Below, piece after piece: positions 3,779-61,313 of a DNA stretch of 64,000 bases. Source of the DNA: Minisyncoccia bacterium (GTDB lineage: Bacteria > Patescibacteriota > Minisyncoccia > Phycocordibacterales > Zambryskibacteraceae); contig JBASCT010000025.1 in assembly GCA_049651785.1 (NCBI GenBank), forward strand, positions 5,563 through 69,562. The letters are read 5' to 3'. How positions within the stretch are numbered: the first letter of the stretch is position 1; the number at the start of each line of letters is the position of its first letter. A program made the translations under genes and the position numbers. Below the pieces are notes generated by a model. The model saw nothing but the letters and a program-made list of their open reading frames with translations. It did not search any database and had not been told where the DNA came from.

Positions 3779-3855
3779 TCCGCGATACCCGCCCGAACGT
3801 ACCGTTCGGTACGGGCGGGGCTCAGTCCCGAAGGGAAGCCTTCGGCTTTGGTAGA
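3779..3855 (+). repeat. Pseudo-copy of the tRNA-Asn 5' half, interrupted by a 32-nt GC-rich palindrome and a second hairpin
   Basis: TCCGCGATA, then the palindrome at 3788-3819, then GCTCAGT, then the CCGAAGG-GAAG-CCTTCGG hairpin, then TTGGTAGA. The non-inserted bases equal tRNA-Asn positions 1-24. Confidence 0.7.
3788..3819. repeat. GC-rich palindromic element, family copy 1
   Basis: CCCGCCCGAACGTACCGTTCGGTACGGGCGGG, 32 nt, near-perfect hairpin. Confidence 0.8.
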
Positions 3856-3882: not shown

Positions 3883-3955
3883 TCCGCGATAGCTCAGTTG
3901 GTAGAGCGCCTCCCTGTTAAGGAGGATGTCCCAGGTTCGAGCCCTGGTCGCGGAG
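3883..3955 (+). tRNA. tRNA-Asn(GUU)
   Basis: Cloverleaf with acceptor TCCGCGA/TCGCGGA, anticodon loop CTGTTAA, T-loop TTCGAGC. CCA is not encoded. Confidence 0.9.
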
Positions 3956-4026
3956 CAAGGTTATTTGCCTACGCCTAGGGCATTGTGCTAGTGTCTTGGC
4001 GGGTTAATTCTTTAGAAAGGAGACGC

Positions 4027-18435: not shown

Positions 18436-18508
18436 TAACTTCTCTCTGGTTTTTGGTTAAGTTTTGTGTTTTAATATCCCCTTCCCGCCCCGTCGGCGGG
18501 GTTTAATT

Positions 18509-30380: not shown

Positions 30381-30388
<8 letters not shown>

Positions 30389-33300
30389 TGTTTTGGGAGT
30401 TATCTGGCTTCCCGCCCGAACGACCGAAATCATTCGGTCGGGCGGGCTTCTTCAAATCGACATCAAGGGAAAGGCCGCGCAAGTTGTTCAAAAGGACGTT
30501 GAAAGAAGCCGGCAGGTGCGGATCGGGAATTTTTTCACCCTTAACTATGGCGTCGAAGGCGGCCGAGCGGCCGATGATGTCGTCAGATTTAATCGTGAGC
30601 ATTTCGCGGAGGGTGTGGCTTACGCCGTGACCCAAAAGCGCCCAGACTTCCATCTCGCCGAAGCGCTGACCGCCGTTCTGCGCCTTGCCGCCCAAGGGCT
30701 GCTGGGTGATGAGAGAATACGGTCCGATAGAGCGCATGTGGATTTTGTCCTCGACCATGTGGTGAAGTTTGAGGACATACATGTAACCGACGGCAATATC
30801 TTGTTCGAACTCTTCTCCGGTGCGACCGTCAAAGAGTTTCACCTTGCCGTTTTTCTTAAAGCCGGCCTTGGTGAGCTCCTCCTGTATTTCTTCTTCCGAG
30901 GCGCCGGCGAAGGGCGGCACGATGGCCTGATAGTTGAGCGTGTGGGCGGCGAGACCCAAATGCATTTCAAGAATTTGCCCGAGATTCATACGTGAAGGCA
31001 CGCCGAGAGGTGTCAGGATAATATCGATCGGCGTGCCGTCCGCCATGTAAGGCATTTCCTCAACCGGCAGAATTTTTGAAATGACTCCTTTGTTGCCGTG
31101 GCGTCCCGCGAGCTTGTCGCCTACGGAAACATTGCGGAGCTGGGCCACCTGAATATGAATTTGTTTCAAAATGCCCGACTCAAGTTTGTCCCCCTTCTCA
31201 CGGCTGAAGATTTGAACCGAGATAACGCGGCCGCGCTTACCCCCTTCCATGCGCTTTGAAGTATCTTTGACATCGCGCGCTTTCTCGCCGAAAAGCGAGC
31301 GAAGCAGGCGCTCCTCTGGGGTAAGTTGCGACTCGCCCTTCGGCGTAATCTTGCCGACAAGAATATCGCCGGGGCGCACCTCGGCGCCGACGCGGATAAT
31401 GCCGTCCTCGGCCAGATTTTTAAGCTTTGACTCTCCGACATTCGGGATGTCACAGGTAGTCATCTCCGGGCCGAGTTTCGTATCGCGGACATTGACCGTG
31501 AATTCTTCGACGTGAATCGAAGTAAATTTGCTCTTCTCGACCAGGCGCTCGGAAATGATGATGGCGTCTTCGTAATTGGCACCCGACCAGGACATGAAGG
31601 CGACAAGAGCATTTTGTCCCACGGCCATCTGTCCGCCGGCGGAAGATGAGGTGTCGGCGAGGACCTTGCCCTTCTTAACCTTTTGTCCGACTTCAACCGA
31701 GGGTCTCTGGTGGAAGGTCGTGAAGCCGTTCGTCATTGAAAAATTGACCAAAGGAAACTTGTGCGTATTGCCCTTGTTATCCTTGACCTGAATCATCTTG
31801 CCGTCGACATACGAGACTGCGCCGTCAACGGTCGAGACGACCATACGTCCGGTGTCGCGAATAGCCGCCTCCTCGATACCTGTGGCGACAAGCGGCACTT
31901 CGGGCACGATGCAGGGTGTTGCCTGTTTCTGCATGTTCGAACCCATGAGCGCGCGGTTGGCGTCGTCGTGGTTGAGGAAGGGAATCATCGAGGTGGCGAC
32001 GGAAAAAGCCTGATTTGTAGCCACATCCATAAACTGTACCTCTCCCTTAGGGATGAGCTGGGGTCTACCACCAAGGCGAACCTCGACCATGTCGGAGACA
32101 ATCTTGTCCTCCTCCATCACCGTGGCGGCATGGGAGATACTCGAATTTTCTTCCTCCAAGGCGTTCAGGAATTTTATTTCGCCCGTAATTTTTCCGTCCT
32201 TAACTACAGCGTAAGGGGTCTCTATCATGCCGAAGTCGTTGATTCTCGCGTAGCAAGAAAGGCGCAAAATAAGACCGATGTTCGGACCTTCGGGGGTCTG
32301 AATCGGACAGAGTCTGCCGTAGTGCGAAGGATGAACGTCGCGGACTTCGTACCCGGCGCGCGCGCGGTTGAGACCGCCGGGACCGAGAGCCGAGACGGTG
32401 CGCAGATGCTCAAGCTCGGCGAGCGTATTTTCCTGCTGGGCAAATTGGGACAATTGGTTCGTGGTGAAAAATTCTTTGATTCTTGCCTGCAGGGGTTTGG
32501 GCGAGATAAAGTGGACCGGCAGCGTAACGTCGGTGTCGATTGTCGACATTCTGTTCTGGATATTGCGCTTAATCTGCGCCATACCTACGCGGATTTTCTG
32601 TTGGAAAAGCTCACCCACGAGGCGCACCCTCCTTGAGCCGAGGTGGTCTATGTCGTCGGGTTGGGCATCGGGCACTGCGTTCAGGCGCGCCATGTGCGAG
32701 ATAATCGTGACGAAATCGGCAAGCGAGAGCGTGCGGCGATCAATCTCCTTGGCGGAATCCTTGCCGCCGAAACGATTGTTGAATCGGAAGCGTCCGACGC
32801 GGGAGAGATCGTAGCGGTCTTTGCTGAAAATGGAGAGCACGAATTCACGGGCATTGTCGGCCGCGGCGAGATCTCCATCGCGAAGTCGCTTGTGTATCTC
32901 GATTGCTGCCTCGTCGACGGTCGTCGTGTGGTCCTTGGCCAGAGTTTTTTCTAGGTGGCGCTTGGTTTCGGGAACGTTTTCGAACAGAGCAAGAATCTTT
33001 TCATTCGAGATGACGTGGTTTGTGTTGCCCGCCATAAGGAACCGCAAGAGCGTTGTAACCGGGAATTTTCTTTTTCGGTCGATTCTGACGTAGAGAGTGC
33101 CGTCGAGATCGGTCTCAAGCTCGATCCAAGCGCCGCGACCGGGGATGATTTTGGCGCCAAAAGTCTTTTTGCCCCTGAGTTCCTGAGTGGTGAAAGAAAT
33201 ACCGGTTGAGCGGGCAAGCTGAGGAACAATCACCCGCTCAATGCCGGAGATGATGAAGGTGCCGTGGGAAGTCATGAGAGGAAAGTCGGCCATGAAGATT

Positions 33301-33644
33301 TCCTGCTCTTTCTCCGTGCCGGTAATCATATTCTTGAGACGCACCTTCACCTTGAGCGGTGCCTCGTAGGAAAGCTTCTTTTCCTTGGCGGTATATTCGT
33401 CTATTTTCGCCTCGGCGAGTTCGAAGCCGATAAAATCGAGTTTAAATTTCTTTTCGGAAAAATCTTTGATAGACGAAAACTCCTCAAAGACTTCTTTGAG
33501 ACCTTTTTCGATAAGCCATTTGAAAGACTCTATTTGAGAAACGACAAGATTCGGTATCTCGGTTAAGGGCTCCCTGAAGCGCCCGAAATATTTCTTCTCT
33601 CGTTCGATTGAGCTCGTGTGTTTGGGTGAGGTAGCCGGATTCAT
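30381..33644 (-). CDS. rpoB: RNA polymerase beta subunit
   Basis: Full-length RpoB motifs. Confidence 0.95.
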
Positions 33645-36105: not shown

Positions 36106-36106
36106 G

Positions 36107-36179
36107 AGCCGGAGGCGAGAGTCGAACTCGCGACTTACCCCTTACGAAGGGGTTACTCTACCAACTGAGTTACTCCGGC
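36107..36179 (-). tRNA. tRNA-Thr(CGU)
   Basis: GCCGGAG acceptor, anticodon loop TTCGTAA, T-loop TTCGACT. Confidence 0.85.
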
Positions 36180-36182
36180 TTA

Positions 36183-36279
36183 GTGCTCCCCGCCCGTACC
36201 GAACGTCCGCCCGGACGAATACCCATTCGGACGGGTATTCGGTACGTTCGGGCGGGTACCAACTGAGCTAAGGTGGCGC
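36183..36279 (-). repeat. Pseudo-copy of a tRNA 5' half with a 68-nt composite GC-rich palindrome inserted between D-arm positions 21 and 22
   Basis: On the minus strand: GCGCCACCTTAGCTCAGTTGGTA, then the insert at 36189-36256, then GAGCACTAA, then directly tRNA-Thr(CGU). The D-arm is identical to that of the tRNA-Thr(GGU) gene. Confidence 0.65.
36189..36256. repeat. GC-rich palindromic element, composite copy
   Basis: CCCGCCCGAACGTACCG...CGGTACGGGCGGG with an inner TCCGCCCGGACGAATACCC/GGGTATTCG hairpin. Confidence 0.75.
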
Positions 36280-37204: not shown

Positions 37205-37310
37205 AGATAAGGGAACGGAGCGCGCTTAGGTGACGCTCCAGGTTACTTTTAAAAATGTTCCCTTCATCCATTATAACTCTTTTGGAACCAAAAAAGTTGC
37301 ACGACTTCGG

Positions 37311-37566
37311 AGCCAAGATCGGGGATCGAACCCGAGACCTCATCCTTCGCTTACACCTCTTTTTCTTTTTATAAGAGGGCTAGACTGTATCTTCCACTCA
37401 CCGGCTAAGGTGAGTAGCTCTTGTCAGTCGTTCGGGCGCTTAGCGCCACGGTCTGAACCTGTTAGGGCCTTTAACCGTTATTCGAGATTCACTCAAAAAT
37501 TACTTTCTAAGTGGGCAGGATTAGCGATCCACCATGGATGTGCTCTACCAACTGAGCTATCTTGGC
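37311..37566 (-). tRNA. tRNA-Thr(GGU) split by a 183-nt intervening sequence between nucleotides 36 and 37
   Basis: Exon 1 is GCCAAGATAGCTCAGTTGGTAGAGCACATCCATGGT. Exon 2 is AAGGATGAGGTCTCGGGTTCGATCCCCGATCTTGGCT. Joined, they give a canonical Thr(GGU) cloverleaf. Confidence 0.7.
37348..37530 (-). other. Intervening sequence, candidate group I-type self-splicing intron
   Basis: The 5' exon ends in U and the intron ends in G. R-like GGTTCAGACC and S-like AAGATACAGTCTAG elements are present. Contains GCGCCCGAACGACTG, which is shared with the palindromic repeat family. Confidence 0.5.
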
Positions 37567-37590: not shown

Positions 37591-38184
37591 TTACAATGAG
37601 GGAAAGTTTTCAATCAGACTATCAAACATTTTTTTAAGTTTAGTGTTATTAAAATAAACAGTTAAAACGCCATATTGATTTTTATTCCTATAACTTCCTG
37701 TCCCGCGAGACGGTGTAATTATAATCTTCTGAAATTGTGATTTTCTTACGCCAAGCTTATTCATCCAAAATCTCTGAGCTGCCACAGGAGAAATGTCAGA
37801 AAATATTTGGAGTCCAAATTTTAACTTATCTTTATCTATTCCATATATTTTATTTAAAAACGTCATATAGGCCATTATGAGTCTCGGATCAACATTGCCT
37901 AATCTTATTGAGTTTTTGTTTCTTTTGTTCCCTTCTCCCCAGAATAAGCCTATACCTAGCCCAAAAAGTTGCCATTCATCCTTAGTTTTTGGTGGTTTGA
38001 AAATAAAGGGATCGCCTTTTGGATTATATCTAAGGTATGTGGCGTCTGATATAGATCTTTTGGGGATTTTGTATTTAGAAATCCAATAATTTATTTTGTT
38101 TTGAGAAACTCCTGTTTTCCTAGCTATTTCTGCAACAGACAACTGTTTTTTTAAATACCATCTCCTTAGCTTACTTTCATTCAT
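37591..38184 (-). CDS. Putative freestanding homing endonuclease (LAGLIDADG-like GLFWGEGN motif) with an N-terminal HTH
   Basis: About 33% GC against about 50% for the genome. HTH LSVAEIARKTGVSQ. Immediately upstream of the intron-containing tRNA. Confidence 0.4.
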   Translation of the reverse strand: MNESKLRRWYLKKQLSVAEIARKTGVSQNKINYWISKYKIPKRSISDATYLRYNPKGDPFIFKPPKTKDEWQLFGLGIGLFWGEGNKRNKNSIRLGNVDPRLIMAYMTFLNKIYGIDKDKLKFGLQIFSDISPVAAQRFWMNKLGVRKSQFQKIIITPSRGTGSYRNKNQYGVLTVYFNNTKLKKMFDSLIENFPSL

Positions 38185-38649: not shown

Positions 38650-38654
38650 TCGAG

Positions 38655-38728
38655 CGCGGCCAACCGGACTTGAACCGGCAACCTCTCCCGTGACAGGGGA
38701 GTGCTCTAACCAGTTGAGCTATGACCGC
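38655..38728 (-). tRNA. tRNA-Asp(GUC)
   Basis: GCGGTCA acceptor, anticodon loop CTGTCAC, T-loop TTCAAGT. Confidence 0.85.
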
Positions 38729-38958
38729 AATTTTAATTTTAGATATCTTCTTCCAGCGGCGCTTTTTAAATACAATTCTCGCTTGCGCGCCACCTCAAAG
38801 GTATCATGTTTTTCGGTATAAACAAGACGAATACCGGACATTTTAGAAGTGGTCAGAGTCTTGCCTCCCCCATGCTCATTAAGACGCCTTGCAAGATTGT
38901 TGGTAAGTCCTTTATATAACTTACCTTTATTGTCCCGTAATACGTAAACGACGTACAT
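38719..38958 (-). CDS. GIY-YIG nuclease family small protein (YhbQ/YazA-like), 79 aa
   Basis: YVVYVLRDNKGKLYKGLTNNLARRLNEH. The 3' end overlaps tRNA-Asp by 10 nt. Confidence 0.7.
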   Translation of the reverse strand: MYVVYVLRDNKGKLYKGLTNNLARRLNEHGGGKTLTTSKMSGIRLVYTEKHDTFEVARKRELYLKSAAGRRYLKLKLRS

Positions 38959-38970
38959 AAATAAGTGCTC

Positions 38971-38998
38971 CCCGCCCGACTGAAGTCGTTCGGGCAGG
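38971..38998. repeat. GC-rich palindromic element copy, CCTGCCCGAACGACTTCAGTCGGGCGGG
   Basis: 28 nt. Shares GCCCGAACGACT with the tRNA intron and with the pilin-leader copy. Confidence 0.75.
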
Positions 38999-39011
38999 TA
39001 ACCAGTTGAGC

Positions 39012-39043
39012 CCCGCCCGTACCGAACGGTACGTTCGGGCGGG
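39012..39043. repeat. GC-rich palindromic element copy, identical to the tRNA-Asn copy
   Basis: CCCGCCCGAACGTACCGTTCGGTACGGGCGGG. Confidence 0.8.
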
Positions 39044-39095
39044 TATGACCGCAGTGCACTACAAAGTACCAGATTTTTTGGGCTTTATCAATTTG

Positions 39096-43750: not shown

Positions 43751-44305
43751 CTAGTATGTGGCTCTAACGGCGCGCTCAACCCTCCTCGGGTTTGAGACAC
43801 TGCAGGTGTTATAGCCTTTTGATTCGATTTTTGTTCTTAGAGTACGTGGAGCCGAAATGGTGTACCACTTGGCGATACTTACCGTTACGCAGTAAGAATC
43901 CGTCGGGGTGAAATCGAAAGTTATCGTGGTTGTGCCGAAGCCCGTCCCGCCATTTACGACGGGAGCAACATTAATAACTTTGCCGTTGCAGTTTATGGGG
44001 TTCGTCGGAGTCGAGGTCGAAAAGGCGCTAAGGCCGCTCGGGTTTCTAACATCCCAGTAGAGAGCGCACTCCATCCCCGAGTCGGCGGCGTAGAAGGCGT
44101 GTTGCGAGGCTTCGCCGGCATTCGCGATAACCAAGTGTCTCACGGCGAGATTTATCACACCGGCCGCCACGAGACTGATTGTCCCGACAATAATAACTGC
44201 GACAAAAATTGTAAAACCTGCGGTTTTGCTTTTGCTTCGCTCAGTCTCTGTGGAAGATTTCTTCCACATTCTTTCGCTGCCAAAAGTGAAGCCTCGGTTT
44301 TTCAT
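43751..44305 (-). CDS. Pilus-associated hypothetical protein with a non-canonical pilin-like N-terminus
   Basis: KTAGFTIFVAVIIVGTISLVAAGV, lacking E5. Confidence 0.45.
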   Translation of the reverse strand: MKNRGFTFGSERMWKKSSTETERSKSKTAGFTIFVAVIIVGTISLVAAGVINLAVRHLVIANAGEASQHAFYAADSGMECALYWDVRNPSGLSAFSTSTPTNPINCNGKVINVAPVVNGGTGFGTTTITFDFTPTDSYCVTVSIAKWYTISAPRTLRTKIESKGYNTCSVSNPRRVERAVRATY

Positions 44306-44871
44306 GGCCAGTTTAAAATATTTTCCCGCGCCTGGAACTCTTGGTTTGTAGAGCCGTGCATCCAGTTAATGGTGACCAGAACGGAAATTTCTTTGGCATC
44401 AACTTGAGTGATAATAATTTCGCGTCGAAATTTCGTCTCGCTCCAAGCCCCGTTGTGTCCATAGAAAAGATTGGTGGCGTCCTGACGAAGCAAGGGGCAA
44501 GACTCGATGGCGCTGCAACGCGTCGGCACAGTCGAGTTTATCGGGTCAACAATGCAGGCATTACCGAACCAGCAGGGGTCATTAATGTTTGAGGCAATGC
44601 CCGTAAGCCAGTTCCTGTTATTGAGCGCGTTCTCGTCGCGCATGTTTCGGATAAATTCGAACCCCTCTTGAGCAAGGTAAAATGCGGTTATCTGGTCGCG
44701 TGAAAAAGTGTAGGACGAAATCGCGGTCCTAACAGCGCTTGAAACTCCTGTAATGGCCGTGATGAGAATCACGATAGCGACTAGGCTTTCGACGAGAGAG
44801 AATCCCCGCCCGAACGACTTTCGTCGTTCTGTCGGGCGGGCGTTTTGCTTTGTGTGTGTTTCTTTTGTCAT
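44302..44871 (-). CDS. Pseudopilin (PilV/GspI-like) with an unusually long 29-aa leader containing a palindromic-element insertion
   Basis: ...RRKSFGRG|FSLVESLVAIVILIT. Start placed at the internal Met (MTKETH), ATGA-coupled to the upstream gene. Confidence 0.6.
   Translation of the reverse strand: MTKETHTKQNARPTERRKSFGRGFSLVESLVAIVILITAITGVSSAVRTAISSYTFSRDQITAFYLAQEGFEFIRNMRDENALNNRNWLTGIASNINDPCWFGNACIVDPINSTVPTRCSAIESCPLLRQDATNLFYGHNGAWSETKFRREIIITQVDAKEISVLVTINWMHGSTNQEFQARENILNWP
44805..44840. repeat. GC-rich palindromic element copy, 36 nt, in frame within the prepilin leader coding region
   Basis: CCCGCCCGAACGACTTTCGTCGTTCTGTCGGGCGGG. It encodes ARPTERRKSFGR. Confidence 0.75.
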
Positions 44872-45427: not shown

Positions 45428-46072
45428 TTACTTTGTCGAAATTTGACCCGTGGTGTAGACGGTGACCCCACTCGTCGCGGTCGTATTGGGGCTCCTGAAA
45501 ATAATTCTTGCCCCTACCATATTCGGATTGGTGACTTGACCCCCGCTTGAGTTGAAAAAGATGAGCTGGGCCTCGGTATTCGGGCGATTGAAGGTAATGT
45601 CGACTCTTCTCGGGGAGTTGGGCGGACCGCACTCGCTTGTGGCGGGAGCGATAATCATGCAAACCGCTTCGATATAAACTCCGCGTAAAATGTTTATCCG
45701 TTCGAGACACTCGTTGGCACCTCCTATGACACACGTCCAGTCACCATTGTAGAAATCATTATTATTGCGATCCGCAAAGTATAGATAGGCTGTAGGAGAA
45801 CCATCATCATCGTCATTAATCAGGCTGAAGGTAAGACCATAGGAAGCGGAGAATTCACCCGAGCCCGTGGAGAATTCTCTGACCCCAGAGCCGTACGCCT
45901 GAGCTTGAGCAATCCTGAGGCTCGTGTCTTCGGCAAGATTGTTGAGCACAAGTCTGTCGTTATACTTCGACTGATTCAAAAGAAGAACGGTGAGAATCAC
46001 GGTCGTGATAGTAATGGTCACCATCAGTTCCGTAAAGGTGAATCCTTTATTTTTCTCAGATAGGAAGGACAT
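45428..46072 (-). CDS. Pseudopilin (GspH/FimT-like)
   Basis: NKG|FTFTELMVTITITTV. Confidence 0.7.
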   Translation of the reverse strand: MSFLSEKNKGFTFTELMVTITITTVILTVLLLNQSKYNDRLVLNNLAEDTSLRIAQAQAYGSGVREFSTGSGEFSASYGLTFSLINDDDDGSPTAYLYFADRNNNDFYNGDWTCVIGGANECLERINILRGVYIEAVCMIIAPATSECGPPNSPRRVDITFNRPNTEAQLIFFNSSGGQVTNPNMVGARIIFRSPNTTATSGVTVYTTGQISTK

Positions 46073-46859
46073 GGTTGAAGTTGAGGTGGAAGAAGAGTGC
46101 GAGCCAGGCGCCTAAGACTATCGCGGGGCCGAAGGGCACTTCAGACTTCATTGTAAGGCCTTTATCGCTCTTTATAAAGCCTGCCTGCGCAGGCAGGCCG
46201 AGTTTTACAACAAAAAAGAGAATGAGCGCCGCCAGAGCGCCAAGCCAGAAGGCAAAGATTATGGCCGAGAAACCTTTTGCCGCGCCGAGAAGTAGACCCA
46301 CGGAGAGTCCGAGTTTCGCGTCGCCGAAACCCATCGCCCGACCGCGCGAAAAGAGCCAGATGGAGCCGAAAAAGACGAAAATGATCGGTCCCGCGAGAAG
46401 GTCCAAGAAGTAAGGCGTAGGAAGTGAGAAGTAAGAATACATACGATACCCAAGAGCGAGTAAAATGCAGGTATAGACGAGCGTGTCGGGAATGATTTTA
46501 TGGCGTATATCATAAATAGTAATGACAATGTAGAGAGAAAAAACCGCAACCAGAACAAGATAATTCAGAAATGACAAAAGATTTAACGGATCAATAATGT
46601 AGAAAAGGGAGGCAAAGATAAGTCCTGTCCAAATTTCAATTATCGGATACTGCCAGGAAATCGGTGCCTGACAGCCGGAACACTTTCTTTTTAAGAGAAA
46701 AAAGCTCAAAACCGGGATAAGTTCGTGCCAAGAAAGTGTCTTGGCGCAATTTGGACAGGCCGAGCGACCGCCAAAGTTTTTTGAATCCCAACGAAGCCCG
46801 ATGACATTCAAGAAACTCCCGACAATGGTACCCAAAACAAAAAGGATGACTAAGGTCAT
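46056..46859 (-). CDS. pilD: Prepilin peptidase PilD (A24 family)
   Basis: N-terminal CPNC...CSGC zinc motif, eight TM helices, GFGDAKL. Confidence 0.85.
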   Translation of the reverse strand: MTLVILFVLGTIVGSFLNVIGLRWDSKNFGGRSACPNCAKTLSWHELIPVLSFFLLKRKCSGCQAPISWQYPIIEIWTGLIFASLFYIIDPLNLLSFLNYLVLVAVFSLYIVITIYDIRHKIIPDTLVYTCILLALGYRMYSYFSLPTPYFLDLLAGPIIFVFFGSIWLFSRGRAMGFGDAKLGLSVGLLLGAAKGFSAIIFAFWLGALAALILFFVVKLGLPAQAGFIKSDKGLTMKSEVPFGPAIVLGAWLALFFHLNFNHVLPI

Positions 46860-55395: not shown

Positions 55396-56055
55396 ATGGA
55401 ACTCTTTTCAAACATCCGTGAGACCGTCACCGACTTCCTCTTCCCGAAGTCGAAGCGCGTTTTGGAATTGGAAGCCCTCTCCGCGCCAGAACTTTTGAAG
55501 ACCTTGCCCGGAGCCGATAAGCCAGAGCGAGGAAACGTTTGGGCAATCTTTAGCTACGAGAACACGCTGGTAAAAGAGCTCGTCTGGGAGCTCAAGTATT
55601 CGGGCAACAAAGTCATTGCCGCGAAACTTGGCGAGATCCTTTTCGACTTTTTGAAAAATAAATTGGCGGAGGAGAAAATTTTTGACACATATCCCCGCCC
55701 GCTTGTCGTGCCCATCCCGATCCCGGGCAAGCGCCTCTTCGAGCGGGGCTGGAATCAGGCGGAGCTTCTGGTCGCCGAATTAAAAAAGCGCGACCCGGAG
55801 CACGTCTTCAAGTATCTCTCGGGACAGCTCGTGAAGGCGCGTTATACGGAGAGTCAGACCAAAACTTCGACACGCGCGGAGCGGGCGAAAAATCTCAAGG
55901 ACAGCATGAGAATTTTAAACCCAGCCTCGGTCGCGGGGTCATGTGTCGCGGTAATTGATGATGTGACCACGACGGGCTCAACTTTCGCCGAGGCGGAGCG
56001 CGCGCTCAAAGCGGCGGGGGCGAAAAAAGTTCTCGGTATTGCTATTGCCCATTAG
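55396..56055 (+). CDS. comFC: ComF/ComFC-family phosphoribosyltransferase-like competence protein
   Basis: PRTase motif VAVIDDVTTTGSTF. Divergent from pilM. The six-frame ORF 54667..56055 is over-extended. Confidence 0.7.
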   Translation: MELFSNIRETVTDFLFPKSKRVLELEALSAPELLKTLPGADKPERGNVWAIFSYENTLVKELVWELKYSGNKVIAAKLGEILFDFLKNKLAEEKIFDTYPRPLVVPIPIPGKRLFERGWNQAELLVAELKKRDPEHVFKYLSGQLVKARYTESQTKTSTRAERAKNLKDSMRILNPASVAGSCVAVIDDVTTTGSTFAEAERALKAAGAKKVLGIAIAH

Positions 56056-56086
56056 GCCCTAGAGACCTTCGTTTTGGTCTGTCATT

Positions 56087-56488
56087 TTATCTTGTTCTTA
56101 AAAGTGTGTTCACCATTATCACCCCCGCGACGTTGAAGTCCTCCCACTCGGGCGCGGGCTTCTCGGAGACGAGGCGCATCCTGCCCGTGACGGCGATAGT
56201 GTCTTCCACCTTAAGGTCGGTATTGGCATCCTGAATTCTCGAGATATCGAGAGCGTAGAAGAGGCCGTCGCGGGACTTAACGCCCAGAGTGCAGGCGGCG
56301 TCTTCGTTCGGCTCCTTGAGAGGCAGACAGCTGAAAGAGCCCGTGATAGTGACCATGTCGTCTATCTCGTCGTTCACCACCTTATCCCAGCCCTTGAAGA
56401 GGATGGCGCCGAGAACGAGGAGCGCGAAAAGGACCACGAGCCAGACGGCATTTTTCCTAACAGGTCCCTTGTTTTCGTAGTCGTCCAT
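56087..56488 (-). CDS. Membrane-anchored hypothetical protein
   Basis: N-terminal TM. No homolog recognised. Confidence 0.45.
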   Translation of the reverse strand: MDDYENKGPVRKNAVWLVVLFALLVLGAILFKGWDKVVNDEIDDMVTITGSFSCLPLKEPNEDAACTLGVKSRDGLFYALDISRIQDANTDLKVEDTIAVTGRMRLVSEKPAPEWEDFNVAGVIMVNTLLRTR

Positions 56489-56610
56489 ATTTAGCGAGCG
56501 CTCCCTTCCCTCATATTTCCCTTATTATACCCCTTCTAGACGCCCGAGCAAGCTGGGACTTACAGATTGAGCATGGGATCTATAGTATCGAGCTCGTGTT
56601 TCTGGCTCGT

Positions 56611-57483
56611 TCATATTCCTATTTTCCAAACTCCCTTCTCGAGAAAAGCTTCAATGGTCTGCCTAGTTGCTTTATTGATAAGATTTGAGTGGGATGTCTT
56701 TTGAGATTTTGCATAATCAACTAAAGTCACAATTTTCTTCCCTTCCAAGTACGCCAAACGTTTGTGATAACTATTGGTCAGAGCTTTCGCGACTATCTCT
56801 TCCATTATTTCTGTTTTACCCTTTTCATCAAATTCCTTAAAAGCATCGTAGTACTTCGCTCGGTCGATGAATTTAATATTGATTGGCACAAAACCTTCTC
56901 TGATTAAAAGATAGTTATTGAGCACACGACCAATGCGTCCGTTACCGTCTATAAATGGGTGGGTGTATTCAAACGCGAGGTGCAGTTTTGCAATCCTCTT
57001 CACAACACTCTTATGATTACTTGCGTTATATTCCGCAAGCATTGTCTCTAGTCGCCCTACAACTTCTCGCGCATGAGGCGCAATGTGGCTACCGACACGT
57101 ACTCGCTCATCCCCCTCACGAAATCGTCCTGCGATATCGTCACGGATATTTGAGATGAGCATTTTATGAAGCGAAAGCATGACGTCGAGTGTCAATTCTT
57201 GTTCTTTCGCTCGTTTATCAATATATGAAACAACTTTTGCAAGGTTTTTTGCTTCAAAAATTTCTCGTTGGTTGATAAACCGATCGAGGTCAATCTGAAG
57301 TAATATCTTTTCCGTTTCTTCTAGTGTGAGCGTGCTGTTTTCGATTGCGTTTGAGTTGTACACCTGCTCTGGTATCTCTGCCTCGTTGACAAGCTTAATA
57401 ACCGCCTCTTTTCCCATAGAAGCTTTGTAGTAACGCTCACGAAGAGTATTGATTTTGCTAAATACTGCCGGTGTCTTTGCCAT
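56611..57483 (-). CDS. Fic/Doc family protein
   Basis: Fic motif HPFIDGNGRIGR. Confidence 0.85.
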   Translation of the reverse strand: MAKTPAVFSKINTLRERYYKASMGKEAVIKLVNEAEIPEQVYNSNAIENSTLTLEETEKILLQIDLDRFINQREIFEAKNLAKVVSYIDKRAKEQELTLDVMLSLHKMLISNIRDDIAGRFREGDERVRVGSHIAPHAREVVGRLETMLAEYNASNHKSVVKRIAKLHLAFEYTHPFIDGNGRIGRVLNNYLLIREGFVPINIKFIDRAKYYDAFKEFDEKGKTEIMEEIVAKALTNSYHKRLAYLEGKKIVTLVDYAKSQKTSHSNLINKATRQTIEAFLEKGVWKIGI

Positions 57484-57491
57484 ATATCATA

Positions 57492-57519
57492 AGTATAGCT
57501 ATTTTCACGCTTTTGTCAA
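57492..57519 (-). promoter_or_regulatory. Promoter TTGACA-16-TATACT for fic. The -10 lies about 8 nt before the ATG, so the mRNA is probably leaderless
   Basis: Read on the reverse strand. Overlaps a 14-bp direct-repeat copy. Confidence 0.4.
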
Positions 57520-57565
57520 CATAATCGTGAAAATCACTGAAAAATCTCGCTTTTTCACGCTTTTG
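57502..57565. repeat. Two 14-bp direct repeats TTTTCACGCTTTTG (57502-57515 and 57552-57565) plus an inverted half-site CGTGAAAA (57526-57533)
   Basis: Exact copies 50 bp apart in the fic upstream region. Operator-like. Confidence 0.6.
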
Positions 57566-57825
57566 ACTATAATTCCCCCTTAGGCATTCTTCAGCGCCTC
57601 AATATCGATCTTCTTCATACTAAGCAGTTTCTCCCACGCCTTTGGTTTGAGTATGAGCTTTTCAATATTTTCCGGATTAATTTGCCACGAGAGACCGTAC
57701 TTATCCTTGCACCAGCCACACTTTTCCCTTAAACCATAAGTTCGGTGTTATTTTTTGCATAAGGATATTTTACTACTTTTAAAGCCGAGAGACCTTTCTT
57801 ATATAGAGAAAAGGTTGAATTTGTG

Positions 57826-58233
57826 TTAGTTTTTATCTCTAAGAAGTTTTTTTCCAAGATTTACTAGCTTATTTGTAAGTCCTGTGCCTTCCAAAATTTG
57901 TTTTTTTAATGCATTAATGTCTGTTGGGTTCAAACTTCCAGTTATAGGAAAGTTTTCCCATTTTTCTACGTGTTTATCGGAGTTGTGCAGATGGGCTGCA
58001 AGTCCTTCAAAATCACGACTTGTTAGTATCACATAGGCAAGTACGGGCGCATTAATGTCATCGGTGTGAAGCTTTTTTTCGTATTTTTTAGTAAGGTTTC
58101 TAACAATATTTGTTGCATCTTCATTAAGAATCTTTGCAACATGATATTCATCATTTTCTACGTCTGAAAACAACCAAACATACGGGTTTCCTTTAAACAA
58201 GAATACTTGTCCGAAGGTTATAAGCGGACCCAT
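57826..58233 (-). CDS. Hypothetical 135-aa protein, candidate toxin partner of the Panacea-domain gene
   Basis: Starts 3 nt after the Panacea gene stop. About 33% GC. No homolog recognised. Confidence 0.45.
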   Translation of the reverse strand: MGPLITFGQVFLFKGNPYVWLFSDVENDEYHVAKILNEDATNIVRNLTKKYEKKLHTDDINAPVLAYVILTSRDFEGLAAHLHNSDKHVEKWENFPITGSLNPTDINALKKQILEGTGLTNKLVNLGKKLLRDKN

Positions 58234-58236
58234 ATC

Positions 58237-58779
58237 TTACACAGCTATTTTTAACGCGGCTTCAATGTCTTCCTTTTCAACAAAGCTGTCCTTGTCATCA
58301 GCACCAAGTTCGTATGGTATAAACTCACCAAGTTTTGTTTTTAGCCACGCCGATTCATTGTGAGACGCTTCTTCGATTTGCTTTCCAGTACTATCTCTAA
58401 AAATCTCACAAACCTCTTCCATTACTTTGAGTTCGCTTTTAGTAAAGTATTCTGCATCTTTTGGAGTGAATTTTCTCTTGACTAGTATTTTTTTCATTTT
58501 GCTATCCTCTCTTTCAACCACTGAAATCGTGTCACCCAAAACTGAGTTATCAATATCAGTTTCCACAGAATTAACCAAATTCATGATTGCAGAAGGAACT
58601 GGCCCGTGCTCCAAATTCACGTAGTTATCACTTGTTATGGGTGTTAAATATTTTTTTACGTGCCGAAAATCCGCAAAGTAAAAGAGCTTCATGAGCTTTG
58701 TTTTCCCCATCAAATTTGGGTCTGTGTAAGTAGCGAAGTAAAGAATCATCTTTTTTACCTTCGCTTGTGATATTTTCAT
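58237..58779 (-). CDS. Panacea (DUF4065, SocA-like) domain protein, candidate antitoxin
   Basis: KLMKLFYFADF...LEHGPV motif typical of DUF4065 as I recall it. Confidence 0.55.
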   Translation of the reverse strand: MKISQAKVKKMILYFATYTDPNLMGKTKLMKLFYFADFRHVKKYLTPITSDNYVNLEHGPVPSAIMNLVNSVETDIDNSVLGDTISVVEREDSKMKKILVKRKFTPKDAEYFTKSELKVMEEVCEIFRDSTGKQIEEASHNESAWLKTKLGEFIPYELGADDKDSFVEKEDIEAALKIAV

Positions 58780-58973
58780 CTATAAATTGCCTTGCGCTCG
58801 ATGCGCTTATTATAACATTAACGAGTCAAAGTGGGTTGTCCACAATACAGATTTTTGTTGAAAAGTCAAGCCATCTACGAATGGATTTTGCCGCCAAGGA
58901 TCATAAGTGGACAAAACGCACAAATAGTAAGTAGCCGCCGAACTTTTCCTGCTAGCATTTCAGGGGATTTATA

Positions 58974-61313
58974 TTAGAACTTCAGCTCTTCCCAATCACT
59001 CCAATCGTTTCGCTCGCACCTGCCCCAATCGTACTTATCTTTCTGATTTATTTTCCACCTTCCATTTTTCTCTATCGCAATACCGCCAAAAAGTTTTTTG
59101 CCTTTCTTATTTTGCTCTTTGATATATTCCTGCAATTTTTCGGCTTTTGCTTTTGTGTATGTCGTTCCGTCGCGATCTCCGGCAGCCTTCGTTTCAAACA
59201 TTCCAATCTGTCCGTTGGCAAATTGCACGAGATAATCGGGGTAAAAAGTATGTATCACGCCTTCGGGATATTCATACTTTATACCAAAATAATCTTTCTT
59301 GTTTTCGCCGTTCTTCCACCACCAAACTATTTTCCCCGGATTCTCGTTCAAAAACTTTTCAAACTGCCTCTCTGGGTCTAGCCGGGTCGCGCTCAAATAA
59401 CATGGTTCATAAACATACTTTTTACCCTCCGCGATCTCATCCGCGTATTTGTTGAAAAAACTTTCCGGCGCAACATCAAATTCATACCATTGTTCGCTTT
59501 CCTCAACTCGTTTTTTTATCTCTTTTTCGCGAATTGTTTTATATGCTTCAATCGCGTCAGTCAAAATCGCCTCAAACTGCTTTCTGTTTCCATTGTGCAG
59601 GAAAATCATCTGCACGAGAATTGCTTCCTCCGGCCATTCTTTTGCGCCGAGATACTTCCTAAACCACGAATAAATCGCTGTCTTTACTTTCGGCACTGAT
59701 CGCTTAATGTTTTTGAATGAGCCAAGATTGTTTTTGATAGTTTGCTCAAACAATGCCTGTAAGTCGTTGCCTGCGATTGTAAGGCGGGCAAAATCTGCGG
59801 AGCTGATCTTTCCCTCAATTTCATCAAAACTTTTTCCCTCAATTTTAGCGTTAGCGATTATATCTTGCTGATATTTTGTGATATCAAGCACCATGCCCGC
59901 GCGCTCCATTTTTTCCGTATTTTGCGCAAACAAAGTGTGGTCTCCTTTCAAATCAAAATGTATGCAAGCCGTTCTCTCAAACACTGGAGTAAAACTTGAT
60001 GTAATGTCGCCGTAATCAGCGCGCGCCTTATAGTACGACACAAGTTTAATCGGCTTATACGCCGCCACACGGCCACTCTTGAGGTGTTTGATGATGTTAG
60101 GGTTATATTCTTCCTTTTTAACGATAATGCTTTGGACATTGGTATAGATATAGCCGACATTCAAAGGTTCGTTCGCATAGTGTTTCTGTTCGGGCATGCG
60201 CAAAATACGTCCGACGGTTTGGATTTCAAATGTCTCGCTGTGCGATTCGCGGAATTTCACCAAAATATGCGCGCGCGGACAATCCCAGCCGGTATCAATC
60301 GCTTGCTTGAAAATAAGAAACTCAATCTCATTGTCTAAATCTCTGACCCATTCATTTTTTGGGCCCAAGGCGGCCGACTTGTCGTCCGCCAGCCAAATCG
60401 CGAGCTTGCCATTTTTTTTGGTTATACCTTTGCGCGCCAAAAATTCCTTTACGGCTTTTATTTTGTCCTCTCCTGCTTCTGCTGTCGGTATTTGCACCAG
60501 CGCGAGCGGATTGACAATTGATTTCTCGGCTTCAAAAAGTTTCTTCAACTCCTTTCGTTTCTGATAAGCGGCTTCCAAAACCACTTCCTGCGAGTCGTTT
60601 TCGTCATCACTAATCTTGTCAATCCTATCGTTGATAACTAATTCTTTCTTTATCATGCCCTCGTCAATTACCTCTTTCGGCTCAATGAAAATAAATCCCG
60701 CCATACCGCGCGCCAAATCGCGCGGATCGGGTTGAATTTTTGGCGTCGCGCTCATTTCCAAAATAACATCGGCATTTATTTCCTCTCGTAATTCGTTAGT
60801 GCGTTCTGCTGTTGCTCCGATATGGCTTTCGTCAATAATCAAAATAACTTTTCGCTGTTCTCTCGTTTTCGCCATTACATCGCGAAAGTTTATTTTCTCG
60901 CCGTCCTTCATCAAAACATTTTTCCATTCGCCAGTTTCGCGGTCTTTACTTCGCAATTTTTCCCAATTTGCCACCACAACCTCGTTTCTGACAATTCGCT
61001 CCCGCCCGCCTGTAAATTCTTCCTCAACAAGCGAAACTCGCGGCGCGCCGCCAAAAAGTTCTTCCAAACTCCGCTTGCTTTGTAAATGCAAATCTCCCTT
61101 GCCGATACTTACCCACACAAAACATAAATCCTCATCAATCAGTTCTTTGATAATTTCTTCAATAAACTTGGCGGTCATTATCGTTTTACCACTTCCGGTA
61201 GGAGCTTGAAAAACGCAAACTTTTTTATTCCCTTCTTTTTTAAGCAAGGTTTTGACTGCGGCGATAAGTTCGCCAACCGCTGTTTCCTGATATTGTTTTA
61301 AGTTAATATTCAT
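58974..61313 (-). CDS. res: Type III restriction enzyme Res subunit (SF2 helicase/endonuclease)
   Basis: Walker A QAPTGSGKT, motif II IIDESH, helicase C region. Confidence 0.8.
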   Translation of the reverse strand: MNINLKQYQETAVGELIAAVKTLLKKEGNKKVCVFQAPTGSGKTIMTAKFIEEIIKELIDEDLCFVWVSIGKGDLHLQSKRSLEELFGGAPRVSLVEEEFTGGRERIVRNEVVVANWEKLRSKDRETGEWKNVLMKDGEKINFRDVMAKTREQRKVILIIDESHIGATAERTNELREEINADVILEMSATPKIQPDPRDLARGMAGFIFIEPKEVIDEGMIKKELVINDRIDKISDDENDSQEVVLEAAYQKRKELKKLFEAEKSIVNPLALVQIPTAEAGEDKIKAVKEFLARKGITKKNGKLAIWLADDKSAALGPKNEWVRDLDNEIEFLIFKQAIDTGWDCPRAHILVKFRESHSETFEIQTVGRILRMPEQKHYANEPLNVGYIYTNVQSIIVKKEEYNPNIIKHLKSGRVAAYKPIKLVSYYKARADYGDITSSFTPVFERTACIHFDLKGDHTLFAQNTEKMERAGMVLDITKYQQDIIANAKIEGKSFDEIEGKISSADFARLTIAGNDLQALFEQTIKNNLGSFKNIKRSVPKVKTAIYSWFRKYLGAKEWPEEAILVQMIFLHNGNRKQFEAILTDAIEAYKTIREKEIKKRVEESEQWYEFDVAPESFFNKYADEIAEGKKYVYEPCYLSATRLDPERQFEKFLNENPGKIVWWWKNGENKKDYFGIKYEYPEGVIHTFYPDYLVQFANGQIGMFETKAAGDRDGTTYTKAKAEKLQEYIKEQNKKGKKLFGGIAIEKNGRWKINQKDKYDWGRCERNDWSDWEELKF

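Follow-up and report, generated by a model that had tools for sequence, protein, structure and literature searches.

The window, by which we mean the whole 64-kb stretch of DNA (64,000 nucleotides) that was analysed, contains seven copies of a hairpin family, each 28–68 nt long, with the consensus CCCGCCCG-AACG-[variable stem-loop]-CGGGCGGG. Every copy can be folded into an outer stem of 8 bp with a 4-nt bulge and a further stem-loop inside it, with energies of −8 to −23 kcal/mol as DNA. All window copies, and 132 copies found in other genomes, have the termini CCCGCCCG...CGGGCGGG, and a GTAG or CGTC tag is absent from all of these. A search for the core CCCGCCCGAACG with at most one mismatch gave 8 matches in the window, where 0.56 would be expected; in 100 shuffles, 8 matches were never attained. 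The GC content of the window, taken in 2-kb windows, ranges from 0.39 to 0.56. Rfam gave no match at the hairpins.

The six copies listed in the first-pass annotation were all present at the coordinates it gave, and a seventh, at the 3′ end of rpoB, had not been listed there. The copies are related and represent one family of short hairpin-forming insertions, which is also abundant in other genomes. A weaker copy that had been suggested at 18483–18500 has neither the family termini nor the bulge, and resembles an ordinary terminator (a stem, then TTTAATT). The family itself does not consist of intrinsic terminators: there is no T run 3′ of any of the seven window copies, and only this unrelated hairpin fits. 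The sequence GCCCGAACGACT, which had been noted inside a tRNA-Thr gene, does occur at 37426–37437, within a 183-nt insertion in tRNA-Thr(GGU).

Of the seven window copies, five are located within tRNA 5′ fragments, each adjoining an intact tRNA gene. The tRNA-Asn 5′ pseudo-fragment (3779–3855, forward strand) reads TCCGCGATA[hairpin]GCTCAGT[second small hairpin, 3827–3846]TTTGGTAGA, and is located upstream of the intact tRNA-Asn(GUU) gene (3883–3956, forward). Its 32-nt hairpin, CCCGCCCGAACGTACCGTTCGGTACGGGCGGG (3788–3819, forward), sits between tRNA positions 9 and 10. The tRNA-Asp 5′ fragment (38965–39052, reverse strand) comprises positions 1–28, abuts its native upstream flank and holds two hairpins, one of 28 nt (38971–38998, reverse) in the D-loop (TTA/GAGC, with the slash marking the junction) and one of 32 nt (39012–39043, reverse) between positions 9 and 10; the intact tRNA-Asp(GUC) gene is at 38654–38728 (reverse). 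In the tRNA-Ser 5′ pseudo-fragment (63286–63347, reverse), a 37-nt hairpin (63306–63342, reverse) follows position 5, giving GGAGA[hairpin]CGTGGCTGA and then an inverted copy, ACTCAGCCAC, with the intact tRNA-Ser(GCU) gene at 63168–63255 (reverse). The fifth copy, 68 nt long (36189–36256, reverse), has a further palindromic sequence nested in the loop of the outer hairpin, and occupies the D-loop (TA/GAGC) of a remnant of the resident tRNA-Thr(CGU) gene. This remnant (36183–36277, reverse) consists of the first 27 nt, GCCACCTTAGCTCAGTTGGTA[hairpin]GAGCAC, and keeps the native upstream flank, while a complete tRNA-Thr(CGU) gene of different sequence (36106–36179, reverse) stands in place of the rest of the resident gene. 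The position of these five seemingly intergenic copies inside duplicated tRNA 5′ fragments had gone unnoticed in the first-pass annotation.

The other two copies are in protein-coding genes. A 36-nt hairpin (44805–44840, forward) interrupts, without a frame shift, the leader region of a gene for a prepilin-type pseudopilin (44302–44871, reverse). The leader reads MTKETHTKQ[NARPTERRKSFGR]G/F in the window, compared to MTKETHTKQKG/F in relatives, and the site reads AAAAAG[36 nt]GATTC, compared to the empty AAAAAG/GATTC in the homologue P0003. The insert adds ARPTERRKSFGR ahead of the G/FSLVE cleavage motif, and the copy is a precise in-frame insertion with no target duplication. The first-pass annotation had described this copy correctly as 36 nt, a multiple of three, within a prepilin leader; it had also proposed checking whether relatives lack the insert, and P0003 has none of the 12 residues. 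The leader length of 29 aa given there was too high, since the leader has 23 aa (11 aa in the relative). The second copy in a protein gene, likewise 36 nt (30411–30446, forward), preserves the reading frame of rpoB (30381–33644, reverse) and is placed in its C-terminal tail, where it encodes PARPNDFGRSGG immediately past the last Pfam domain; none of 120 homologous RpoB tails contains it. At this site, the syntenic relative L216 has the empty sequence GAAGAAG/AAACAGG, versus GAAGAAG[36 nt]AAGCCAG in the window. No target duplication was seen at the two protein-gene sites with a readable junction.

The same pattern extends to other genomes. Of the hairpins inside long open frames (no stop codon over 300 codons or more), all 12 are a multiple of three in length, versus 47 of 122 in non-coding DNA, and a Pfam scan of six of these host proteins identified SecA, PolA, Pif1, Mfd, PurA and Dus. 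The hairpins would also spread on their own, by precise insertion and with no target duplication where the junction can be read, and copies in protein genes would survive only if they keep the frame by a length divisible by three and add 10–12 residues that do no harm. The sites tolerated in the window would be a prepilin leader, which is removed by prepilin peptidase, and the non-conserved RpoB tail. In-frame palindromic insertion in protein-coding genes is a feature of the Rickettsia palindromic elements (RPEs), and these hairpins share it. RPEs are confined to Rickettsia and are ≈100–150 bp long, as against 28–68 nt for the window hairpins, and we know of no enzyme partner for them and no tie to tRNA-gene fragments. 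The GC clusters of yeast and fungal mitochondria are likewise short GC-rich palindromes that spread in a lower-GC genome, including its coding sequence. They are organellar and of other sequence classes, and to our knowledge have no defined nuclease partner or comparable association with tRNA fragments.

The first-pass annotation had compared the hairpins to REP or MITE elements mobilised by Y1/RAYT transposases. The likeness to REP/BIME elements and their RAYTs (Y1, HUH; Proteobacteria) is considerable: both sets are short GC-rich imperfect palindromes dispersed in the genome, both go with the gene of a small nuclease of one domain, on either side of which the repeats can be present, neither makes a target duplication, and mobilisation in trans is presumed for both. 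REP palindromes are 20–40 nt long and occur in many copies, and the seven window copies, all of which fold, agree with this. A reading as REP-like or IS200/IS605-derived miniature elements, moved as single-stranded hairpins by a Y1 enzyme (RAYT/TnpA) encoded elsewhere, draws on the imperfect palindromes with a conserved 4-nt bulge beside the stem, on the lack of a visible target duplication and on the size of the inspected part of the genome (≈70 kb). REPs are, however, described as extragenic and marked by a GTAG or CGTC tag (PMC3733652). The hairpins have no such tag, and two of the seven window copies and 12 copies from other genomes lie inside ORFs. Furthermore, at the same tRNA positions they occur in both orientations (23 sense, 16 antisense), which is not predicted by strand-specific insertion 3′ of a fixed tetranucleotide, as in IS200/IS605-derived elements (PATEs). 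In the flanks, the bias is no more than weak (T at −2 and A at +2, ≈50% each), and there is no strong target motif. As the first-pass annotation had stated, no Y1/RAYT is encoded in the window: Pfam scans of ≈50 ORFs found no Y1 or other transposase domain, the nearest being a weak HTH_Tnp_1 match below the cut-off in the ORF at 37591–38184, and none recurs near 125 hairpin loci. We therefore consider a Y1-driven origin very improbable.

Two further ideas about the insertion sites were examined and discarded. The hairpins do not behave as tRNA introns: excising them restored no tRNA, and ARAGORN found 61 tRNAs both before and after excision in 126 sequences. Nor is there a sign of insertion into the loops of folded single-stranded DNA, since at 117 non-tRNA sites for which the empty junction was reconstructed, the junctions were no more unpaired than their surroundings (0.533 vs. 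0.533).

The relative L216 (20.4 kb) is syntenic with the window and contains no hairpin and no GIY-YIG ORF of the kind described below. Its tRNA-Asp gene is uninterrupted and lies behind the same upstream flank as in the window, and its resident tRNA-Thr(CGU) gene is intact and uninterrupted. This comparison shows that one tRNA-Thr(CGU) gene of the window was replaced. The metagenome locus L138 has the tRNA-Thr arrangement of the window with the GIY-YIG ORF still present. In all, hairpins are precisely present or absent between related genomes at four loci, which supports the earlier view that they behave as mobile DNA. The combination of presence or absence of the locus with co-conversion of flanking markers, a feature of homing cassettes, is seen at tRNA-Asp and at tRNA-Thr(CGU).

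These comparisons also bear on the reading that the hairpins are not mobile DNA at all, but serve the module or the host as functional signals in RNA or DNA, such as a terminator or insulator, a stabiliser of the mRNA 5′ end, or a site of processing downstream of the old tRNA promoter and ahead of the nuclease ORF. In modules, the hairpin falls in what is presumed to be the 5′ untranslated region of the transcript for the GIY-YIG protein. This would suit such a role, as would the T runs that follow a few copies in other genomes. The absence of a T tract after the window copies, the use of both orientations, the copies in frame within housekeeping ORFs, and the precise presence or absence between close relatives at sites with no regulatory logic all argue the other way, and make a signal function most improbable.

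Between the tRNA-Asp fragment and the intact tRNA-Asp gene lies an ORF for a stand-alone GIY-YIG nuclease of 79 aa (38719–38958, reverse; PF01541, E = 6.9e-13). It starts 12 nt from the hairpin at 38971–38998, and it terminates inside the downstream tRNA-Asp, whose TAG at positions 8–10 serves as the stop codon. The Pfam match covers residues 1–70, and the protein consists of the catalytic domain only and has no separate DNA-binding domain. Residues Y5, Y15, G17, R25, H29 and E61 are invariant among 11 homologues. The nearest solved structures are those of the UPF0213 proteins 1zg2 and 1ywl (E ≈ 1e-16), followed by SLX1, a structure-specific endonuclease. No match was found among known defence systems or in NCBIfam. 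There is one such gene in the window to seven hairpins.

When the ORFs less than 300 nt from hairpins were compared at 125 loci of other genomes, the only recurrent family was a small GIY-YIG protein, found at 8 loci. In the reverse test, we took 80 metagenome loci picked solely by similarity to the GIY-YIG protein. A tRNA gene abuts the homologue in 70 of these, 59 of them with the tRNA at most 60 nt downstream on the same strand and 11 more with it just upstream. A hairpin with no more than one terminal mismatch adjoins the gene in 50 of the 80 loci, and many of the others have diverged hairpins. The sequence at most 200 nt from a GIY-YIG gene, 30 kb in total, contains 53 exact hairpins, versus 5 in the other 245 kb, an 86-fold enrichment. 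The nuclease and the hairpin are thus associated in both directions of search. In four loci (L170, L204, L172 and L152), the nuclease gene has the same hairpin on both sides or the whole unit is tandemly repeated. The hairpins occur in Patescibacteria, Bacteroidota, Bdellovibrionales and Scalindua, sometimes as an identical 32-mer: the hairpins at 3788–3819 and 39012–39043 are the same sequence, which is found 30 times in 27 loci of other genomes. Such identity across several phyla fits constraint by a conserved protein partner.

Based on these data, the hairpins are probably the short palindromic component of a selfish module, together with a stand-alone GIY-YIG nuclease that lodges at tRNA genes. 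A role of the nuclease in mobilising the hairpin is inferred from a link that is purely associative, and GIY-YIG enzymes are not known to act as transposases, which counts against it. The association might also arise if the hairpins were independent mobile palindromes, moved by another enzyme with a preference for sequences like the tRNA D-arm, that pile up next to GIY-YIG genes only because these genes create the sole non-essential D-arm-like copies. Solo copies a long way from every GIY-YIG gene speak for this reading; they are seen in rpoB, the pseudopilin gene, secA and polA. At most hairpin loci no GIY-YIG gene is present within 8 kb; in the genome scan, ≈88% of hairpins have none within their own 8-kb piece. 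Two hairpins in some tRNA fragments, and hairpins nested in the loops of others, also suggest continuing independent insertion. However, hairpin-free tRNA fragments upstream of GIY-YIG genes are rare, ≈90% of the assessable ones having a hairpin when counted by eye, which would not be expected from slow secondary insertion. Moreover, the hairpins sit where the rearranged segments join, the ORFs near them at the 125 loci include no other recurrent enzyme family, and the more distant GIY-YIG homologues tend to go with diverged hairpin types. We regard independent palindromes that merely gather beside the nuclease genes as unlikely.

According to the selfish-module interpretation, the protein would be a stand-alone GIY-YIG nuclease of ≈75–80 aa from the structure-specific UPF0213/SLX1-like branch. 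Its arrival at a tRNA gene would leave a duplicated or displaced piece of tRNA next to an intact copy, which may be resident or imported. The leftover piece would hold at least one hairpin, mostly at the D-loop (..GGTA/GAGC..) and more rarely between positions 9 and 10, in the D-stem, or in the anticodon loop or T loop. The window would accordingly have one complete module, at tRNA-Asp, and three decayed ones from which the nuclease ORF has been lost, at tRNA-Thr(CGU), tRNA-Asn and tRNA-Ser. The extruded or single-stranded hairpin may serve as the cis-acting substrate of the mini-nuclease, with break and repair then placing copies of the hairpin, and of the gene next to it, at new sites. Since most hairpins have no GIY-YIG gene in their 8-kb piece, any mobilisation would have to act in trans. 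The intact tRNA beside the module has the same D-arm sequence as the interrupted fragment, so that immunity through destruction of the nuclease site by the hairpin fails to explain the architecture.

The hairpins would stand to the nuclease as REPs do to RAYTs, but with a different class of enzyme. REPs have a Y1 partner and lineage-specific sequences, whereas the window hairpins have a GIY-YIG partner and a sequence common across phyla; they also differ in their CCCGCCCG/CGGGCGGG termini with the AACG bulge, and in being sited in tRNA-gene fragments and ORFs. On the enzyme side, a counterpart is SegB of phage T4, a free-standing GIY-YIG homing endonuclease in a tRNA gene cluster, which recognises a conserved motif of tRNA genes, the T-psi-C stem-loop, and drives the inheritance of itself and of neighbouring tRNA genes with loss of the recipient markers (PMC2330249). 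That loss parallels the tRNA-Thr replacement in the window, and the 79-aa protein shares with SegB-like cassettes the GIY-YIG core residues and a location by a conserved host gene, here a tRNA. SegB is a larger protein that includes a DNA-binding part. The nucleases of the window type, in contrast, have only the catalytic domain, belong to the Slx1-like branch and lack a separate DNA-binding domain. SegB is also a phage gene for which no hairpin repeats or duplications of tRNA fragments have been reported, while the window nuclease is chromosomal. Phage carriage found little support: against 2.9 million viral contigs, the GIY-YIG profile gave only one weak relative, and the hairpin pattern matched six viral stretches.

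By sequence, the nearest relatives are the prokaryotic stand-alone Slx1-like GIY-YIG proteins (UPF0213; PDB 1ywl, 1zg2), which have a minimal GIY-YIG domain and no auxiliary domain (PMC1564403). The 2006 survey of the superfamily predicted these to be repair enzymes, inherited mostly vertically, and placed the selfish GIY-YIG enzymes in another (UvrC+) lineage (PMC1564403). Unlike this prediction, the Slx1-like members described here behave as mobile genes lodged at tRNA genes, with a hairpin as partner. In the open-access papers searched, including for the core sequence, we found no description of the hairpins or of the arrangement of nuclease, tRNA and hairpin. We tentatively suggest, as a possibility short of a firm proposal, that they represent an undescribed class of mobile element, present in several phyla, in which a minimal SLX1-like GIY-YIG nuclease and a conserved GC hairpin that acts as its DNA handle together invade and replace tRNA genes, while the hairpin also spreads alone and adds peptides of 10–12 residues to essential proteins such as RpoB, SecA and PolA.

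If this is true, "repair-type" prokaryotic Slx1-like proteins would be selfish, and a GIY-YIG counterpart of the REP–RAYT partnership would exist. The occurrence of partial next to intact tRNA genes, in streamlined Patescibacteria and Bacteroidota, would be accounted for, and there would be a route for the exchange of tRNA genes between distant bacteria. Essential proteins would repeatedly acquire short insertions from the hairpins, and such insertions can cause errors in gene calling, alignment and phylogeny. Should a defined hairpin be what the 79-aa nuclease recognises, this would be an unusually small structure-guided DNA-cutting system. A role would follow for a large family of tiny, uncharacterised GIY-YIG proteins, which comprises 2,426 cluster representatives at 50% identity.

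Seven copies of the hairpin were identified in the window, at 3788-3819 (32 nt), 30411-30446 (36 nt), 36189-36256 (68 nt), 38971-38998 (28 nt), 39012-39043 (32 nt), 44805-44840 (36 nt) and 63306-63342 (37 nt). The source is a Minisyncoccia (Patescibacteria/CPR) metagenome-assembled genome, and the contig is 82.7 kb long. When at most one mismatch was allowed, the core CCCGCCCGAACG had eight matches in the 64-kb window, compared to 0.56 expected, and none of 100 shuffles equaled this number. A site-by-site reading showed that all seven hairpins have the same 8-bp outer stem (CCCGCCCG/CGGGCGGG), adjoined by an unpaired tetranucleotide, usually AACG, followed by a variable inner stem-loop; because of the bulge, each hairpin has a polarity. 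In the 68-nt copy, further palindromic sequence is nested within the loop of the outer hairpin. Folding of the hairpins as DNA gave -8 to -23 kcal/mol. The first-pass annotation had grouped six of the copies into one family, which the common stem and bulge bear out, and had not listed the copy at 30411-30446. A supposed weaker copy at 18483-18500 lacks the family features and was dropped: lying between two genes, it consists of a stem with TTTAATT after it, and would appear to be more like an ordinary terminator. A perfect 20-nt palindrome (GCCTGCCTGCGCAGGCAGGC, 46179-46198), similar to the CCTGCC..GGCAGG hairpin type of other genomes, lies within an ORF (46056-46859, minus strand) identified by synteny as the prepilin peptidase gene.

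Five of the seven hairpins each interrupt a partial 5' copy of a tRNA gene that adjoins an intact tRNA gene. The tRNA-Asn fragment (TCCGCGATA, hairpin, GCTCAGT..TTGGTAGA) lies ≈30 nt upstream of tRNA-Asn, the tRNA-Ser fragment (GGAGA, hairpin, CGTGGCTGA) upstream of tRNA-Ser, and the tRNA-Thr(CGU) fragment (GCCACCTTAGCTCAGTTGGTA, hairpin, GAGCAC) immediately upstream of tRNA-Thr(CGU). The tRNA-Asp fragment contains two hairpins (GCGGTCATA, hairpin, GCTCAACTGGTTA, hairpin, GAGCAC) and is followed by a 79-aa ORF and the intact tRNA-Asp, the TAG stop codon of the ORF being located within the 5' end of tRNA-Asp. We considered the possibility that the interrupted pieces were intron-bearing tRNA genes. 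However, in silico removal of the hairpins from 126 sequences yielded no additional tRNAs (61 before and 61 after), and the pieces are therefore fragments. The D-loop of the tRNA-Asn fragment is also interrupted at 3827-3846, by a small hairpin of another type (CCGAAGGGAAGCCTTCGG). After the fragment comes TCGCGGAA, which is the 3' acceptor strand; the arrangement resembles what an internal deletion in an entire upstream tRNA copy would leave. At 63240-63295, a 10-bp inverted repeat is formed by the initial 16 nt of tRNA-Ser together with an upstream inverted copy, as fold-back repair after breakage in the 5' region of the tRNA would be expected to produce.

The locus L216 (GCA_964446535.1), a syntenic relative whose NUDIX neighbor is 81% identical to that of the window, spans the pilus genes through rpoC, a stretch in which no hairpins occur. 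Its tRNA-Asp is uninterrupted and has the same upstream flank as that abutting the hairpin-bearing fragment in the window, so that the window differs by the two hairpins plus a unit of spacer, GIY-YIG ORF and 28-nt repeat of the tRNA 5' end. The tRNA-Thr(CGU) of L216 starts with GCCACCTTAGCTCAGTTGGTAGAGCAC. Of this gene, just these 27 nt are retained in the window, interrupted at TA|GAGC by the 68-nt hairpin; "taa" comes next, and then a complete tRNA-Thr(CGU) that differs in sequence. In the metagenome locus L138, the same Thr fragment and the same incoming tRNA occur with a GIY-YIG ORF between them. Modules and hairpins thus differ in presence or absence among close relatives, and a resident tRNA gene has been replaced. 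From the resident gene in L216 and the arrangement in L138, the window Thr locus is a module that took the place of the resident tRNA gene, its nuclease ORF having been lost afterwards. Similar decay of a module seems likely at the Asn and Ser loci, which fall outside the L216 coverage.

The 79-aa ORF corresponds to a GIY-YIG catalytic domain (PF01541, E = 6.9e-13). When ORFs within 300 nt of hairpins were examined in the listed loci of other genomes, the small GIY-YIG protein, present at eight loci, was the only ORF family common to more than three of the listed loci. Two architectures were found: a tRNA 5' fragment with hairpin, the GIY-YIG gene and an intact tRNA, and its mirror image, with an intact tRNA, the GIY-YIG gene and a 3' fragment with the hairpin in the T or anticodon loop. 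In the reverse test, 80 metagenome loci were picked by similarity to the GIY-YIG protein alone. A tRNA gene was located ≤60 nt downstream on the same strand in 59 of the 80, and just upstream in 11 more. A hairpin with at most one terminal mismatch adjoined the nuclease gene in 50 of the 80 loci, and most of the remainder had diverged hairpins at the same place. Exact hairpins were 86-fold denser within 200 nt of the gene (53 in 30 kb) than elsewhere on the same contigs (5 in 245 kb). Insertion was in the D-loop at ≈25 of 41 points, the others being at positions 8-9|10, within the D-stem or in the anticodon loop, and both orientations were found (23 and 16). Some loci had the same hairpin on both sides of the nuclease gene, or the whole unit in tandem.

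These data show a physical association, across phyla, between the hairpins and the mini GIY-YIG gene at tRNA genes. A less likely reading has the hairpins moved by something else and accumulating in the sole dispensable tRNA-like sequence. In its favor, most hairpins lie a long way from any GIY-YIG gene; against it stand the near-complete hairpin occupancy of tRNA fragments and the junction position of the hairpins. The first-pass annotation had favored REP/MITE-like elements moved by Y1/RAYT transposases. No such enzyme was present among the window ORFs examined, as it had stated. A REP/RAYT or IS200/IS605 model failed the tests of tag, location and orientation, its enzyme was not found in the ORFs examined in the window or near hairpins of other genomes, and we consider this origin highly improbable. 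At L170, L204, L172, L152 and L160, either the fragment-hairpin-nuclease unit occurs in tandem copies or the intact tRNA is followed downstream by a second tRNA copy bearing a hairpin, as expected if a circular or duplicated intermediate had undergone recombination at the segment with the hairpin.

A profile of 11 homologues matched the UPF0213 structures 1zg2 and 1ywl (E ≈ 1e-16), followed by the structure-specific endonuclease SLX1 (E ≈ 1e-6). The family comprises 2426 cluster representatives (E ≤ 0.001) and is almost missing from viral contigs; the nuclease had no matches in NCBIfam or PADLOC. A 2006 superfamily survey (PMC1564403) described such proteins as minimal, stand-alone, Slx1-like prokaryotic GIY-YIG proteins, predicted a repair role and mainly vertical descent, and placed selfish GIY-YIG enzymes in another lineage; a link to tRNA genes or hairpins was unmentioned. 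Many database entries (among P0296-P0445) are annotated with 25-40 extra N-terminal residues, probably because gene callers run the ORF through the hairpin and tRNA fragment, which contain no stop codon; the L094 ORF MKSKKCGRSSTGYPPVPNVGTFGRG...MYVVYV is an example.

The nuclease lacks a DNA-binding domain, and its closest relatives among characterized enzymes are structure-specific, so that what it recognizes is most plausibly the hairpin in extruded or single-stranded form. Either the hairpin alone, or a larger piece that includes the neighboring gene and tRNA segment, would then be copied into new sites through break and repair, with the conserved tRNA sequence supplying homology for the module. 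Such homing via tRNA sequence would resemble that of phage T4 SegB (PMC2330249), a homing endonuclease of the GIY-YIG type whose gene is located among clustered tRNA genes; SegB recognizes a conserved tRNA motif and carries neighboring tRNA genes with it. Short mobile palindromes (REPs, Rickettsia RPEs, mitochondrial GC clusters) and GIY-YIG genes among tRNA genes (SegB) were already known. No description of the combination of a cross-phylum hairpin with a minimal Slx1-like nuclease was found in the literature searched; this partnership, with a putative enzymatic link, the mark of tRNA-gene invasion and replacement, and in-frame insertion in essential genes would appear to be new.

Scanning one genome per species with the pattern CCCGCCCGAACGWMN{1,31}WCGGGCGGG matched at least 119 stretches, confirming that the family occurs in other genomes. 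By record titles, the Patescibacteria among the matches listed were Kaiser-, Nomura-, Uhr-, Lipton-, Yanofsky-, Harrison-, Kerfeld- and Saccharibacteria and Peregrinibacteria. Bacteroidota were also among the matches listed, some of them isolates and complete chromosomes, as were Ignavibacteriales, Chlorobiaceae, Bdellovibrionales, Scalindua and one gammaproteobacterium; the few actinomycete matches look like chance occurrences in high-GC DNA. The exact 32-mer of the window was found in at least 30 copies at no fewer than 27 loci, many again in a tRNA D-arm context.

The other two window hairpins are in frame within protein genes. The product of the pseudopilin gene (44302-44871, minus strand) starts MTKETHTKQNARPTERRKSFGRG|FSLVESLVAIV. 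The leader is therefore 23 aa, rather than the 29 aa first proposed, while the in-frame position of the 36-nt copy within it stands. Among 120 pseudopilin homologues, P0002 (88% identical) has the same insert; the expected leader without insert was found in P0003 (79% identical; MTKETHTKQKG|FSLVE). At the DNA level, the empty allele AAAAAG|GATTC compares to AAAAAG[36 nt]GATTC, with no target duplication. In P0062, an orthologue at a greater distance (54% identical), the corresponding position is occupied by an independent nested hairpin, 63 nt long, that belongs to this family; other orthologues have palindromic inserts there that are unrelated to the family. Prepilin peptidase removes the leader during type IV pilin processing, making it a permissive site, and small repeats appear to have settled in prepilin leaders repeatedly. 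Other inserts at this position are found in P0027/28/34/47/63, P0060/75/95, P0109/114, L218 (1501-1600) and L219 (558-620). One is ≈66 nt long, flanked by AAAGG(A/G)TT, another is a 21-nt hairpin (CGCCTGCCGGACGGACAGGCA, peptide RLPDGQA), and a third codes for the repetitive peptide NFQFSIFNFQ.

The RpoB copy (30411-30446) adds PARPNDFGRSGG immediately past the last Pfam domain, an insert found in none of the 120 closest RpoB tails; the site reads GAAGAAG|AAACAGG in L216 and GAAGAAG[36 nt]AAGCCAG in the window. Among the listed matches, all 12 canonical hairpins within stop-free frames of at least 300 codons had lengths divisible by three, compared to 47 of 122 non-coding hairpins, in which 32-nt and 29-nt forms predominate. 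A Pfam scan identified six in-frame host proteins: SecA, PolA, Pif1 helicase, Mfd, PurA and Dus. Solo hairpins thus insert precisely, without target duplication at readable junctions, and those within genes persist solely in frame. A purely regulatory role would leave the in-frame copies in housekeeping genes unexplained, and we give it marginally less credence even than the transposase model. The RpoB homologue P0168, from another Patescibacteria genome, has the tail RLPDRQAG, akin to the RLPDGQA hairpin product, suggesting that another hairpin family behaves likewise.

Other insertions were observed at tRNA genes in the window. The tRNA-Thr(GGU) gene (37309-37566, minus strand), uninterrupted in L216, has a 183-nt insertion (37348-37530) immediately past the anticodon. 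This insertion has a weak group I intron match (15 bits, E = 0.14, under the Rfam threshold) with a GAAGAUAcAGUCUAG core, and holds the 14-mer GCCCGAACGACTGA, the left arm of a common hairpin subtype. A 197-aa ORF (37591-38184, minus strand), in which helix-turn-helix domains (HTH_Tnp_1, MerR) were matched only weakly and below the Pfam cut-offs, separates this tRNA from the NUDIX gene; the two are 25 nt apart in L216, so the ORF is another insertion adjoining a tRNA gene. The last 19 nt of tRNA-Ser (63167-63185) are repeated 131 nt downstream (63017-63035), with a GC-rich spacer between the repeats. Past this repeat, the region at ≈56000-63000 has low GC (0.39-0.44), encodes Fic, SocA/Panacea, a ResIII helicase and an N6/N4 DNA methylase, and looks like an island integrated at the 3' end of tRNA-Ser.
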